Assembly: GCA_048882045.1 (NCBI GenBank)
Contig: JBHLRZ010000035.1
Span: 1 to 29,051, forward strand
Reading direction: 5' to 3'
DNA: 29,051 nucleotides
Source: Candidatus Thorarchaeota archaeon
GTDB lineage: Archaea > Asgardarchaeota > Thorarchaeia > Thorarchaeales > Thorarchaeaceae
This document shows positions 19,131 to 25,628 of the stretch, piece after piece. Position 1 is the stretch's first letter, and every line of letters starts with the position of its first letter. The notes under the pieces were generated by a model that saw nothing but the letters and a program-made list of their open reading frames with translations, was not told the DNA's origin and searched no databases. The position numbers were made by a program, and so were the translations under genes.

Positions 19131-19163
19131 GGGGAGAGAAATATCTCCCCCCACTTATTTTTT
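19131..19163 (+). terminator. Hairpin plus U-tract terminator-like element between convergent genes
   Basis: GGGGAGA (19131-19137) / TCTCCCC (19144-19150) followed by CCACTTATTTTTT. Confidence 0.55.
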
Positions 19164-19175
19164 CTATACCACTCA

Positions 19176-19535
19176 TTAATCAATTCCAATTCGAGCTGCA
19201 ATCTTGACGATGAGAAATACAACAAATGCCACAATAATGAATGTGATTAGACTGTCTAAAATCGGACCACCTGACAGTACATAATCCACGTCCTCTGGTT
19301 GGATGGCTGGATAAACGATTTCGATGAGCGGCATGATTAAACTGTTAACAAGTGCTTCGACAACCTCACCGATGTAGATACCCAAAATAAACGCAACAGC
19401 CAGACCAAGGACTTTGTAATTTGAGATGAAAGCAATAAACTCGTTTATCAAACCCTTTGGCTCTGGAGGTTTGGGCGGTGGTGTTAGTAGTTTTCGTATT
19501 TCTCGTAGTTCTTCCAACATAGCATCGTTTGACAT
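19176..19535 (-). CDS. mscL: Large-conductance mechanosensitive channel MscL-family protein (119 aa, rearranged)
   Basis: EFIAFI (S1 helix), VLGLAVAFILG...VVEALVNSLIMPLI (TM1), G..LDSLITFIIVAFVVFLIVK (TM2); ATG at 19535 with AGGGGTGA RBS. The 315-aa ORF-track call is an over-extension antisense to the neighbouring gene. Confidence 0.88.
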   Translation of the reverse strand: MSNDAMLEELREIRKLLTPPPKPPEPKGLINEFIAFISNYKVLGLAVAFILGIYIGEVVEALVNSLIMPLIEIVYPAIQPEDVDYVLSGGPILDSLITFIIVAFVVFLIVKIAARIGID

Positions 19536-19632
19536 TCTATCACCCCTAATGAAGTGCCAAGGAAATAGCATCATCTCAAATATGATTCTTTCCAACCTGC
19601 ACGTAGATTGATATCCTCGAATGTAAGTAGGA

Positions 19633-20294: not shown

Positions 20295-23200
20295 ATGATG
20301 CCGTCTCATCGTCTGTTAGTCACGCTTCTAGTGTTGATATTCTTCTTGGCTCCACTCAGTGGACCATTCGCACAAATAGAGAGTAGTAATGGGGAAACTC
20401 CATCTAGTGTTGAAGAAACAGACGGAGTTTCAGGTCTGCAAACAACAAATAGAAGATCAGTCGTAGCAGCCGACCCGATTAGCGGAGTGCTTGACCCTGT
20501 AGTTGTTGAGCAATACGGCTACGAAGGAACTGGTCTGCTTAATGCTCGAACAGATTCAGCTTCTAATGACCAGAGCAGCATCCCCATTGATAATGCAACT
20601 GGGTGGGTAGGAAGTCAAGCAGAACTAGAGATTTGGAATATGGAAAGACTCTACGCTGAGAACGGAACTTTGGATGATGGCATCCCGGGTACCAATTACC
20701 ATCCAAGTGCCACAAGCGCATACCCCTATGGTTGGGATCTAGACTGGGATGACCCAAGCTCAGGGCTGCAAAATGTATCTACAACTTATGATGAAGACAA
20801 CGGGTATCTTGTTCTAGAAAGCAAAGCTGAATTGGCTACACCAGGTGGCTTGGTGGAATACAGACATTGGGATGGGACATATATCTACTGGAATCAGACT
20901 ATTCATAATGTTCCATATTCGGACAATCTCACTCTGAGTTTCATGTACAATTATGATAGTGGAATAATAGACAATCCGCCCATTGAGGTCGCTGGTTGGT
21001 TGTGGTTGGATGTGCTCATAGATGGTGCTTTCGTTGCATATTCTGATCTCATGACAGAGTGTCCTTCACGCAATACATGGTACGAGTTTGTTGTGCCAAA
21101 TTTGCTGGACCTACCTTCGACATTCAACCTACAAATTGGAATCTCTGTTGAGGCTGTGACTCCTCCCCCAACTGATTATTTTATCACGTACCCTGGTGCA
21201 GACTATGATGAAGATAGTGAGCTGGACTACAGTTTGGCTCAAATAAACAGGGTATTCCTGGACAACATTAGCCTTTTGAGTGTGAATCAGCCAAGTTATG
21301 ACGAGGTCGACCTCACATTCAATGCTGGAGTTTTCAGTACTGCAATTACAGAGTTCTCCAATTATGGTACTGCAGTAATCACAAACCCAAGTTACTGGAC
21401 GGATAATTATCTTGATGTCGGGGTTTCAGCAAATGTGAGCATTTCATTTGACTATGAAGTGAAACTGCTATCACACCACTTTGGTAACTCCCTTTGGACA
21501 TCACAGCCAACGAAGCAAGGTGTAGCGTATACAGTTGATGCAGGTGCAAGTGCAGCGTTATCAGCTTTCACCTATGTAGGAAATGAAGGAGTAGCAATCT
21601 ATGAGAATTTCACGGTTGAAATATCCCTTCCACCGGATTGGGAAAACATCACCATCTTCGATCCATTTCTCAATGATGTGACTGGTCTCTGTACATTTAC
21701 TCCAGGCTTGCTTGAAATACCAACATCAATCCTAGACAGATTGGGATGGTGGCAAGTGACGCTGGAATCGCCAAACTATGCGGAGTCAGTTACTACTCAG
21801 ATTGACGATACGGGATGGACTGATAGTTCAATATTCCGTCCAACGAACAAAACTAGAGTTGTAATTACTCTTGGAACTGCTTCTGATACTCCGCTAGTTT
21901 CGGACCCTGTCAATGTGACCTGGTATGCACCAGATGATAGCACATGGAGCCAAGACTCACCATCCTCAGGAGTTGGAGGTGTAGTGTACTCAGACCAAAG
22001 AACATTAGGAGGGTCTAACACGACAGCTGGTGAATGGAGTGTTGTTGCCGCTTGGACCAATGGGACTGAGGTAGCATATGGAGTAACAACCTATGACATG
22101 TACCACACTGCATCTCTTGATGTTCCTGTAGAGTACCAGACGGTTCAGACCGACATTGGTCTAGTAATTTCAAATTTCGTTTACTACACTGATACTGACA
22201 CATCTGAGTATCTCCTCGATGATTCAGTTACAATAACTGCAAACTGGACAGGATCAATAATACCCTTTACACAGGACCTCGTTAAGAATTGGTGGCGAGG
22301 CGAGTTTGATACTTCAGCACTGGAGGGAGGTCAATACATAGTTGTTGTGACAGCATCGAGACCATACTTTGATGACGTTACTACTCAATTCACAGTGGTT
22401 GCCACACAAGAAATGACTCTTGAAATTCTGAATGCTGGAGCAACACCAATTGAACGGGGACTGAATGAAGTATTCACGGTTCAAATGGACTATGAATTGC
22501 TGAATGGAACAGGAATCTCCGGAGCTATGCTCTATGTAGATTACTCTGGGCCTGGAGGCGGACTATCTTGGTCTAACTTCAATGACAACAATAATGGTCA
22601 TTACTCAGTAGACATTATTTGTGACATCGCAGTGACGTATTCTGTCACAATTACCTTGAACAAGACCTACTATCAAAGTGCTTCTGATTCATTTACTCTA
22701 GTCATAGGTGAAACAGGAACAGAACTTGAGTTGATCAACGGAACATCAGGTGTGGTAAACTATGGAGAGAGCTACAGACTAGTGGTTGAATATCGAAATA
22801 GCACTGGATTTGGACTTCCAGGAGCGGATTTAGACGTTGTATCTATCAACCCTGCGACAGGATTGACTAACACCAGCTTCACGCCCATCAGTGGAGGATT
22901 TTATGAAATCACTTTCACACCGACGACCACAGGAACCTTCTCAATAACCATCAGTGCAAGTCTTTTCAATCATGAAACTAAGTTCACAACTTTTACACTG
23001 ACAGGTGTTGTAATTCCGACAATCCTGACCTCAATTCCTTCAAGTGCAACAGTTGCGGTGAATGAGAGTTACATTGTTCAATTGCTCTTTCAAGATGAAG
23101 GATCCAATCCGATTAATGCAGCAAACATCACGCTGATAGAAACACCATCTGGAATAATCATTTCTGAGGCTATCCCTGTAGGTAACGGTTTGTTCAATAT

Positions 23201-25628
23201 TACACTTCGATCATCAGAGATGGATGTCTACAATCTACTCTTCAGGGCTTCTGCAAACAACTATCAGAGCTCTATTGTTGGATTCACACTTTCAGTGACC
23301 GCACTACAGACCAATCTGGAAATACAGAATCCAGGGACAGTTTTCGAAAATGGTCTCAATGAAGTTTTCACTCTTCAGTTGAGTTACCAACTCTTTAATG
23401 GTACTGGTGTGCCAGGAGCGTCATCTTCAATTATATTCTCAGGCCCGCAAGAAGGCCTTTCTTGGACTAATTTCACTGACTATAACAATGGGTCATACTC
23501 AATGGACATTACATGTAACGTGTCAGCGATATATGGAATATCTGTCACTCTATCAAAGAGTTACTACTACAATGCATCAGATTCTTTCACCCTGATTATT
23601 GGCGAAACAGGTAGTGAACTCCAGATTCTAAATGGTACTGCGGATGTTGTGTTATTTGGTAACAGCTACCTACTAGTTGTCGAGTATAGAAACAGTTCCG
23701 GATCAGGTCTGACTGGTGCCGATTTGCAGGTCGTCCAGATAACTCCAGAAGTTGGACTCAGTCACTCCAACTTTTCTCATATAACTGATGGATTTTATCA
23801 AATAACTCTGACACCCACTGCAGCTGGGTCTTTCTCAGTCGTTATCAGAGCAAGCATCTTGAATCATGTAACACAATATGCAACATTTACTCTGACTGCA
23901 GCAGGGATTCCAACTATTCTCACAGCATTGTCATCAAGTGCGACTATTGCGTTGGACCAGAACATCACTGTGCAATTCAGTTTTCAGGATGAAAGTCTGA
24001 ATCCGATAGACCTCGCAACGGTTGTAGTAGTAAATCCCCCAGCTGGCATCTTGATATCTAATGTTACACCCATTGGTGGCGGGCTCTATAACTTCACACT
24101 CACTCCTCAAGGGATAGGAAGCTATGACTTACTCTTTAGGGCTTCTGCAGACAACTACCAGAGTTCGAGTGCAGCTTTTACACTGTCAGCCACTGAGATA
24201 CCTACGATTCTAGAGTTTGAAGGAGATGTTTCGTCCGCTCAAGCAAAGTTTCAAGATTCATACGAATTGATTGTCTATTACTGCAGAGCTGACACTCCAG
24301 CACTAGAAAATGTTGATGGAGCAAGTCTTACTGTTCTTGTTCAGAGCTCAGGGCTTGTTGTTGACATATCTGAACATGTCGGATACTATGTGATCACAAT
24401 CACAGGCGAAGCAATTGGATCATGGTCTCTCACAATCTCTGCGGAAAAAACTGACCACCGTCTAGCAACCAAGCAGTTCCTATTCCAGGTGGAAGAGATA
24501 CCACTAACAATTGAAGTTCTAGATGGGTTACAGGGACCTGAGGGATTTCCAATCAGTTTCAGAGTAAAACTCACAGAAACTGAGACTGGAGATCCGGTCA
24601 CTGGAGCTACAGTCTACTATGACATTCAATTGTTAGATGGTTTGCCATATGGAAACCGAGAGAGTATGATTGAGTCTTCTTCTGAGCCAGGAGTATACAC
24701 TGCTTCGCTTACTATGCCTTCAGCTGACGAAACTTATTTCATTGTGATCGGATGCAACATTGCCAATTTTGTGTTAGACGACCCCCTCCCTATACAATTG
24801 TTGCCAAGACGAGATATCACCACGATGATCTACATGACAGTCAGGGACAATTCTTACGTCTTTATTGGTCTGGGTGCCATTGGGATTGGTCTTGTCTATA
24901 GGAGAAGTGCAAGAAAACGACGTATTAGACAAAACAAGGTTACACTCGCAGTAAAACGGCGATTTGATGATGTGAGAAACCTTCTCGGGGTAATCGTACT
25001 TCACAAGGACAGTGGTCTACCAATCTATTCTAAGATTCTCAGAGAGGGTTTGGAAGAGGCTGTGATTTCAGCCTTTATCACTGCAATCACAAGTTTCAGA
25101 GGCGAGTTTGATATTGAAACCTCGACTGAAGAATGGGGACTGATTCCAATTTCAGATATCATCAGAGTGATTTCTACTAACCGATTGATCTGCGCTTTCA
25201 TCACAACTGGTAATCCATCCCCCGACCAACGTGAGCGTATGATCAAGTTCGCAAAAACTGTTGGATTCATCTTCGATGACACAATGGAGGAGGTTCCAAT
25301 AGTCGTCCTAGATCGTCACACAACTATGCAGTTTGACTCACTGTTCGATGACCTCCTTGACGGTGCTCTTCTGCGAACCTACAAGCTTGATGACGAGAAG
25401 AAGTTCCCGACATCTACATGTGCTGATGAGAGAATTGCTCGGAAGCATGGAGAAGAGTTCAAACTTGAAGAGTTGGCGTCAGAGATAGCGGGATGTGGAC
25501 TCGAAGAGGGCCGCGTCTATCAGGCTATCATGAAGGCACTCGACAACCACCTCCTCATTTCAACGGAGGAGTCCCCCTTCAAGACAGAGATAATCAGAGC
25601 TCCCGAACCTGTTGAGGAAGAAAGCTAA
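20295..25628 (+). CDS. Giant single-pass surface protein: signal peptide, beta-rich ectodomain with Ig-like repeats, TM, cytoplasmic longin-like domain and wHTH-like tail
   Basis: N-terminal hydrophobic signal; ~100-aa repeats (T.L.......N....V.Y....G....GA......NG.Y.......G.Y...I.A....Y); many N-x-S/T sequons; TM YVFIGLGAIGIGLVY then RRSARKRRIR; LLGVIVLHKDSGLPIYSK...ISAFITAITSF. Confidence 0.85.
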   Translation: MMPSHRLLVTLLVLIFFLAPLSGPFAQIESSNGETPSSVEETDGVSGLQTTNRRSVVAADPISGVLDPVVVEQYGYEGTGLLNARTDSASNDQSSIPIDNATGWVGSQAELEIWNMERLYAENGTLDDGIPGTNYHPSATSAYPYGWDLDWDDPSSGLQNVSTTYDEDNGYLVLESKAELATPGGLVEYRHWDGTYIYWNQTIHNVPYSDNLTLSFMYNYDSGIIDNPPIEVAGWLWLDVLIDGAFVAYSDLMTECPSRNTWYEFVVPNLLDLPSTFNLQIGISVEAVTPPPTDYFITYPGADYDEDSELDYSLAQINRVFLDNISLLSVNQPSYDEVDLTFNAGVFSTAITEFSNYGTAVITNPSYWTDNYLDVGVSANVSISFDYEVKLLSHHFGNSLWTSQPTKQGVAYTVDAGASAALSAFTYVGNEGVAIYENFTVEISLPPDWENITIFDPFLNDVTGLCTFTPGLLEIPTSILDRLGWWQVTLESPNYAESVTTQIDDTGWTDSSIFRPTNKTRVVITLGTASDTPLVSDPVNVTWYAPDDSTWSQDSPSSGVGGVVYSDQRTLGGSNTTAGEWSVVAAWTNGTEVAYGVTTYDMYHTASLDVPVEYQTVQTDIGLVISNFVYYTDTDTSEYLLDDSVTITANWTGSIIPFTQDLVKNWWRGEFDTSALEGGQYIVVVTASRPYFDDVTTQFTVVATQEMTLEILNAGATPIERGLNEVFTVQMDYELLNGTGISGAMLYVDYSGPGGGLSWSNFNDNNNGHYSVDIICDIAVTYSVTITLNKTYYQSASDSFTLVIGETGTELELINGTSGVVNYGESYRLVVEYRNSTGFGLPGADLDVVSINPATGLTNTSFTPISGGFYEITFTPTTTGTFSITISASLFNHETKFTTFTLTGVVIPTILTSIPSSATVAVNESYIVQLLFQDEGSNPINAANITLIETPSGIIISEAIPVGNGLFNITLRSSEMDVYNLLFRASANNYQSSIVGFTLSVTALQTNLEIQNPGTVFENGLNEVFTLQLSYQLFNGTGVPGASSSIIFSGPQEGLSWTNFTDYNNGSYSMDITCNVSAIYGISVTLSKSYYYNASDSFTLIIGETGSELQILNGTADVVLFGNSYLLVVEYRNSSGSGLTGADLQVVQITPEVGLSHSNFSHITDGFYQITLTPTAAGSFSVVIRASILNHVTQYATFTLTAAGIPTILTALSSSATIALDQNITVQFSFQDESLNPIDLATVVVVNPPAGILISNVTPIGGGLYNFTLTPQGIGSYDLLFRASADNYQSSSAAFTLSATEIPTILEFEGDVSSAQAKFQDSYELIVYYCRADTPALENVDGASLTVLVQSSGLVVDISEHVGYYVITITGEAIGSWSLTISAEKTDHRLATKQFLFQVEEIPLTIEVLDGLQGPEGFPISFRVKLTETETGDPVTGATVYYDIQLLDGLPYGNRESMIESSSEPGVYTASLTMPSADETYFIVIGCNIANFVLDDPLPIQLLPRRDITTMIYMTVRDNSYVFIGLGAIGIGLVYRRSARKRRIRQNKVTLAVKRRFDDVRNLLGVIVLHKDSGLPIYSKILREGLEEAVISAFITAITSFRGEFDIETSTEEWGLIPISDIIRVISTNRLICAFITTGNPSPDQRERMIKFAKTVGFIFDDTMEEVPIVVLDRHTTMQFDSLFDDLLDGALLRTYKLDDEKKFPTSTCADERIARKHGEEFKLEELASEIAGCGLEEGRVYQAIMKALDNHLLISTEESPFKTEIIRAPEPVEEES
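22410..24200 (+). repeat. Intragenic tandem duplication of an 894-nt (298-aa, three Ig-like domain) unit
   Basis: GLNEVFT codons start at 22458 and 23352, and GETG codons at 22707 and 23601 (both offsets 894 nt); FRASA[ND]NYQSS ends both copies; boundaries approximate. Confidence 0.85.

Follow-up and report, generated by a model that had tools for sequence, protein, structure and literature searches.

Canonical MscL proteins consist of an S1 helix (EFxxF), TM1, TM2, a charged cluster, a Pro-rich linker and a C-terminal helix (LLxEIRDLL) that forms a pentameric cytoplasmic bundle. Their N- and C-termini are both cytoplasmic, and S1 lies on the membrane surface. Bacterial members (E. coli; M. 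tuberculosis, 2OAR; PF01741, TIGR00220, TC 1.A.22) have the same S1-TM1-loop-TM2 core as the archaeal protein described here and, like it, a short, conserved helix on the cytoplasmic side that contains an L..IR.LL core; in the bacterial channel this helix forms a five-helix bundle (PMC5722894). The bundle does not come apart during gating, and a role as a sieve and as a stabilizer of the pentamer is ascribed to it (PMC5722894). The bacterial helix follows TM2, the charged cluster and a linker, whereas in the archaeal protein the helix lies before S1 and the linker comes after the helix.

The best match of known structure is MscL from Methanosarcina acetivorans (MaMscL; 4Y7K closed, 4Y7J expanded), which aligns to query residues 27-111 with an E-value of 1.8e-11. 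The two proteins share a short archaeal core, a Phe at the gate position (LAIAF in MaMscL, LAVAF here) and the lack of a C-terminal helical domain. The N-terminal helix and proline tether of the protein studied here are absent from MaMscL, whose alignment begins only at query residue 27. MaMscL was crystallized as a fusion to riboflavin synthase. Because it is missing the whole C-terminal domain, this domain is dispensable (PMC6167328). No description of an MscL with an N-terminal helix of the kind reported below was found in the full texts searched, which come mostly from non-subscription journals.

The window analyzed here is a stretch of 29,051 nucleotides from a Candidatus Thorarchaeota archaeon. 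According to its ORF translation, the minus strand at 19176-19535 encodes a 119-amino-acid protein of the MscL family, with the following features.

19131..19152, both strands: G+C-rich hairpin followed by T runs, terminator-like (sequence scan).
19176..19535, minus strand: mscL-family coding sequence, 119 codons plus a TAA stop (ORF; Pfam, NCBIfam and PDB matches).
19179..19190, minus strand: residues 116-119 (IGID), the entire C-terminal tail, with no C-terminal helix (translation, alignments).
19191..19268, minus strand: residues 90-115, TM2 (AlphaFold2, Pfam).
19269..19313, minus strand: residues 75-89, short periplasmic loop (AlphaFold2; variable in alignments).
19314..19451, minus strand: residues 29-74, S1 amphipathic helix (LINEFIAFI) continuous with the pore helix TM1 (GLAVAFILG) (Pfam and PDB alignments, AlphaFold2).
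19452..19484, minus strand: residues 18-28, proline-rich linker TPPPKPPEPKG from the N-helix to S1 (AlphaFold2 coil).
19485..19529, minus strand: residues 3-17, conserved two-heptad amphipathic N-terminal helix NDAMLEELREIRKLL (AlphaFold2, conservation, synonymous and non-synonymous changes).
19539..19546, minus strand: Shine-Dalgarno-like GGGGTGAT, 3 nt upstream of the ATG (read from the sequence; putative function).

This is the single MscL gene in a Thorarchaeota-type genome of 3.6 Mb that is 93% complete. The Shine-Dalgarno-like sequence lies upstream of mscL in a divergent intergenic region of 97 nt. Past the mscL stop, the terminator-like hairpin sits between mscL and a convergent 70-amino-acid ORF; five terminator-like sites are observed where 1.0 is expected. 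Some gene callers place the mscL start at M6, a choice that retains the helix. In a related locus (L029:3001-3357), the MscL frame has an in-frame stop at codon 4 (MSN*NEMLEEL), and translation there probably starts at the Met corresponding to M6. The mscL of the window is best explained as an intact, expressed-looking gene for an MscL-family mechanosensitive channel of the short archaeal type.

The neighbors of mscL are unrelated to it and comprise an AlkZ-like glycosylase, a PEMT/ICMT-like methyltransferase and a large Ig-repeat surface protein. The last of these (20295-25628, plus strand) is 1777 amino acids long and contains Ig-like domains (Filamin/Big_1/Invasin_D3) in repeats; a transmembrane segment lies near residue 1530, and the cytoplasmic C-terminal domain, of about 230 amino acids, has no Pfam match. 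A neighborhood survey around mscL genes encoding the N-terminal helix found no partner gene conserved across phyla. One apparent neighbor family, present at 27 loci, is an antisense ORF that overlies mscL itself.

Membership of the protein in the MscL family is supported by several comparisons. The Pfam MscL model (PF01741) scores 54 bits against a cut-off of 27.4, with residues 29-113 matching profile positions 1-95 of 123. Since the alignment stops at position 95, the part of the profile that describes the C-terminal helix has no counterpart in this protein. The NCBIfam MscL equivalog models match too, but with scores below their cut-offs (43.8 versus 71 bits and 44.3 versus 197 bits for TIGR00220 and PRK models), and public records call relatives 'MscL family protein'. 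Within the S1 motif N31-E32-F33..F36, position 32 is acidic and position 33 is hydrophobic in 99% each of 86 sequences, and S1 aligns to the corresponding helices of MaMscL and SaMscL. The TM1 gate motif (LAxxxIxG) is also present, with GLAVAFILG aligning to PLAIAFIMG of MaMscL.

AlphaFold2 was used to fold a single chain from an alignment of the 86 sequences, which extend down to 30% identity. The resulting monomer, with a mean pLDDT of 87.7, has helices at residues 3-17, 29-74 and 90-115 and a coil at residues 18-28. This arrangement agrees with the initial annotation, made from the DNA letters, that a cytoplasmic-type helix and Pro linker are joined to S1. The same annotation described the protein as ending in KIAARIGID, nine residues past TM2, with no C-terminal helix. 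The canonical cytoplasmic helix after TM2 is indeed absent, and in the model four residues lie past TM2. In an alignment survey, none of the forms with the N-terminal helix carries a C-terminal extension. A Foldseek comparison of the monomer model with the PDB returns 4Y7K first, at an E-value of 0.79; a lone helical hairpin is uninformative in such a search.

Homologues in Thorarchaeota-type, Hodarchaeota, Odinarchaeota and other Asgard genomes align over 100% of the query. Residues L7, E9, L10, I13, R14, L16, L17, P19 and P21 are invariant in 22 homologues. Across the 86 more diverse sequences, I13 remains invariant, making it one of only three such columns in the whole protein, and L7, E9, L10 and L17 are conserved in at least 90%. 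When codons 6-19 are compared with those of seven related loci, there are 6-9 synonymous and only 0-3 non-synonymous differences. Residue and codon comparisons alike indicate that the N-terminal helix is translated and is under strong purifying selection. The initial annotation had allowed that the true start might lie downstream of the helix. This is not so, because synonymous changes dominate the helix codons and the helix is conserved across several archaeal phyla. Furthermore, the stretch from M6 to S1 contains no other in-frame ATG, and M1 has a Shine-Dalgarno-like site ahead of it. General start-codon uncertainty in metagenome-assembled genomes, and nothing further, speaks for an annotation artefact in which the helix is never made, and the chance of this is negligible.

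The N-helix can be assigned a heptad register of d6, e7, g9, a10, d13, e14, g16 and a17. Positions d6, e7, a10, d13, g16 and a17 are hydrophobic in 97-100% of the 86 sequences, with d6, a10, d13 and a17 reaching 99-100%. Glu occupies g9 in 91% of them and Arg or Lys occupies e14 in 95%, and the i/i+5 spacing of these two positions is that of interhelical g-e' pairs in parallel coiled coils. The b, c and f positions are polar, an acidic N-cap occupies positions 3-5, and Pro19 caps the C-terminal end. Hydrophobic a/d and charged e/g positions, by which coiled coils are recognized in sequence, are thus both found, and the pattern is consistent with a short parallel bundle whose hydrophobic face is broad. 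Counting against a bundle is the length of the helix, which at about 15 residues spans only about two heptads. All six rows with V9 (P0001 numbering), which come from Bathyarchaeia and Methanomethylicia, have K14, compared with five of the 78 rows with Glu9; this covariation probably represents one or two events only.

By one length measure, the linker has 11 residues in 123 of 137 homologues, mostly from close Thorarchaeota, and 13-16 residues in most of the others. Proline makes up a fraction of 0.5-0.9 at positions 19, 21 and 23-26. A few forms have long acidic linkers.

The N-helix layout is widespread in archaea. An exhaustive HMMER search of 1.8 billion representatives yielded 748 matches, and many of the 50%-identity clusters align from query residue 3. 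In a pattern search of one genome per species, relatives are encoded at 523 of the first 600 matches. The initial annotation had suggested a survey of archaeal MscLs for the same order of elements. The best 80 loci place it in Asgard archaea (Thorarchaeota, Hodarchaeota, Hermodarchaeota, Promethearchaeota and Sigynarchaeota), Bathyarchaeia, Nitrososphaeria, Methanomethylicia and Thermoplasmatales. The helix is present in 77 of these loci; one of the other three is cut by a contig end and two have no helix. An archaeal N-helix MscL is also found in a sequence labelled Candidatus Acidiferrales bacterium (Acidobacteriota; L063:3001-3378), which could reflect mis-binning or horizontal transfer.

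A maximum-likelihood tree of the MscL core was built from 174 rows and 98 columns, too few for the root and the deep branching order to be resolved. In this tree, 114 N-helix rows and four helix-less rows form one clade with an SH-aLRT value of 96. A constraint that puts all N-helix rows in a single clade is not rejected (p-AU 0.51). The sister group of the N-helix clade, with weak support of 38, is mainly helix-less, and the non-helix relatives that score highest in phmmer are short forms that lack a helix. Helix-less MscLs within the clade include those of a Hermodarchaeota genome (L073:3001-3291) and of Hodarchaeum mangrovi (L079:3001-3303). In each of these two genomes the helix-less form is the sole MscL, so a channel can be kept without the helix.

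Several relatives carry other elements on the MscL core. Natural fusions (P0131, P0139, P0141 and P0271-P0281) consist of two DUF1508 (PF07411) domains followed by a linker, the helix, the proline linker and MscL. Since these proteins carry the helix internally, it does not require a free N-terminus. In P0154 the core is preceded by a P-loop-like GFPGSGKT segment in place of the helix, and this may be a chimeric gene call. A CxxC...CxxC zinc-ribbon-like C-terminal tail replaces the helix in P0208, P0237, P0251 and P0270. These variants resemble the N-helix MscLs in that another small cytoplasmic element replaces the C-terminal helix on the same core, but their appendage stays C-terminal and is a four-Cys ribbon rather than a helix.

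The initial annotation viewed the layout as an apparent circular permutation of MscL. The positional swap is real, but the permutation is only partly supported, and HMM, PDB and Pfam searches do not link the N-helix to the MscL C-helix. A profile alignment of the N-segment with MscL C-termini, which the annotation had also proposed, gives a weak signal that lies above shuffled controls. With hhalign, the N-segment profile matches 123 canonical C-extensions at 60% probability, with a score of 18.2 over 12 columns. Column shuffles of the C-extension profile (n=200) score 8.3 +/- 2.2 with a maximum of 15.9, and the reversed profile scores 12.6. The two helices share L..IR.LL in the same register, such that L, I, R, L and L fall at a, d, e, g and a.

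Searches with single models give no such signal. An HMM of the bacterial C-helix ranks the N-helix 1854th among 7645 matches in the six-frame ORFs of its own genome. In the reverse search with an HMM of the N-helix, the canonical C-helices have a median rank of 1466 of 10397, and the best of them comes 28th. Among PDB matches to the N-helix profile at E <= 10 there is no MscL chain. The best of these matches, a Cas4 protein (E 0.021), is taken as chance, and a match to a water-soluble phospholamban pentamer (E 2.5) is not significant. Pfam MscL matches neither residues 1-28 nor residues 1-23 nor any of 38 N-segments. For residues 1-28, phmmer finds nothing among PDB sequences and an ESM Atlas look-up gives no usable match. 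The order of elements, helix-linker-S1, is not a rotation of the parent, since a rotated TM2-linker-helix would keep the linker after TM2. DUF1508 fusions are the only fusions among the longer proteins, which include no MscL-MscL fusion, and no same-strand tandem mscL genes occur in the 80 loci. Common descent of the N- and C-helices is, from these sequence comparisons, neither shown nor excluded.

A closer counterpart of the N-helix is found in a different protein family. The pattern [ILVM]L..L[RK].I[RK].[LVI]L has four matches among the 17110 ORFs of the genome, compared with 0.1 in shuffles. They are the MscL N-helix and the extreme C-termini of three tandem paralogues on one contig (C1), which are two-TM proteins of the bPH_2 family (PF03703). 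This region (G000:C1:229900-233200; L082:1414-4742) contains four tandem bPH_2 paralogues, three of which end in DDEILxxLR[ED]IRxxL. Homologues in other Asgard genomes have tails such as KILNELRKIRKLLEK and EILHELKEIRKLLE, and DDEILLVLREIRDLL is a further example among Asgard bPH_2 tails. These YdbS/YdbT-like proteins thus carry nearly the same helix at a cytoplasmic terminus after a flexible linker. They differ from the N-helix MscLs in that they belong to an unrelated family, their helix is C-terminal, and it has no proline tether.

When the MscL N-helix profile is aligned to Asgard bPH_2 tails, hhalign reports 93% probability (E 2.6e-7, 19 columns, score 33.4). Shuffled controls average 7.5 +/- 1.8 and reach at most 12.6; the reversed profile scores 8.0. 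Canonical MscL C-helices match the same tails at 69%. The similarity was found post hoc, from a proteome-wide look, and the N-helix HMM ranks the tails of its own genome only 12th-13th. Three genomes with an N-helix MscL, one each from Bathyarchaeota, Nitrososphaerota and Thermoplasmatales, yielded no bPH_2 gene. What appears to be new here is this match between the N-helix and Asgard bPH_2 tail helices, and it suggests a reusable terminal helix module. The bPH_2 tails match with higher probability and over more columns than the MscL C-helices do, and the module reading is preferred over circular permutation.

The explanation we favor, which as a whole we hold to be somewhat more probable than not, is that the pentamer's five N-helices come together along the cytoplasmic axis in a parallel coiled-coil bundle. 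Such a bundle would correspond in function to the C-terminal bundle of bacteria, acting as an oligomer stabilizer and a pre-filter. It would be tied to the tension-coupling S1 helices by rigid proline-rich tethers of about 11-14 residues (11 to 13-16 as measured), and these tethers could restrain or tune the movement of S1 during opening. The helix itself would be a reusable terminal module that is found also on Asgard bPH_2 C-termini and, in a weaker form, as the bacterial MscL C-helix. True permutation would instead derive the N-helix from a canonical C-helix: an mscL with a C-helix would have been duplicated in tandem or fused, and then trimmed at both ends. The common core and register of the two helices, the hhalign score above all 200 shuffles and the reversed profile, the mutually exclusive occurrence of N- and C-helices and the cytoplasmic location of both MscL termini would all be accounted for by this route. 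We nevertheless consider it unlikely, as neither direction of HMM search raises the other helix above proteome noise, the PDB and Pfam searches give no link to MscL, and a simple rotation would have put the proline linker on the other side of the helix. The fused or tandem intermediates sought in the longer proteins and in the 80 loci are missing, the closest non-helix relatives by score and most of the weakly supported sister group have no helix, and the N-helix is far closer to bPH_2 tails than to MscL C-helices.

Two further possibilities dispense with the homo-bundle. The helix could be a docking motif that binds a shared cytoplasmic partner or hetero-associates, in which case the bPH_2 motif would mark clients of one factor. 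The same genomes encode two unrelated two-TM families with near-identical motifs at their cytoplasmic ends, as would be expected from such an arrangement, and the exposed residues E9 and R14 are more highly conserved than a simple packing helix might need. However, no neighbor gene is conserved around N-helix mscL across phyla, the three genomes noted above combine an N-helix MscL with no bPH_2 gene that could be found, and no candidate partner emerged, leaving docking improbable. An ESCRT MIT-interacting motif was rejected by inspection, as the spacing does not fit the MIM1 consensus. Alternatively, an amphipathic helix might lie in the plane of the membrane beside S1 and sense lipid packing or curvature. 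The amphipathic pattern is clear, and the helix is tethered to S1, which is itself on the membrane surface. Against this, the helix is net acidic (consensus DDEMLEELKKIRELL, with the acidic N-cap at positions 3-5), has no aromatic or interfacial basic residues, is spaced from S1 by a rigid proline linker of 11 residues, and recurs at the ends of soluble PH-domain tails. Membrane binding is accordingly a very unlikely role.

A more general and more speculative form of the bundle proposal is that phi-L-x-E-L-x-x-I-R-x-L-L is a portable oligomerization module, attached to either end of small multimeric membrane proteins. It may occur at the bacterial MscL C-terminus, at the archaeal MscL N-terminus and at the C-termini of the tandem Thorarchaeota bPH_2 proteins. 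In archaeal MscL, the module would form a five-helix bundle leashed to S1 by polyproline rods of fixed length, and the channel could then open only by stretching the leashes or unzipping the bundle. This generalization is tentative and rather doubtful. If true, it would represent a leash/bundle mechanism of gating tuning that is absent from all studied MscLs.

The roles of the cytoplasmic bundle and of S1 are still debated in MscL, the best-studied mechanosensitive channel. Here, a clade that extends over several archaeal phyla ties a bundle-like helix to S1 and not to TM2. Its N-helix, helix-less and fusion members provide a ready-made comparative experiment on tethering versus assembly, threshold and sieving. 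The bPH_2 match suggests, in addition, that a small terminal helix module has been reused between unrelated membrane complexes.
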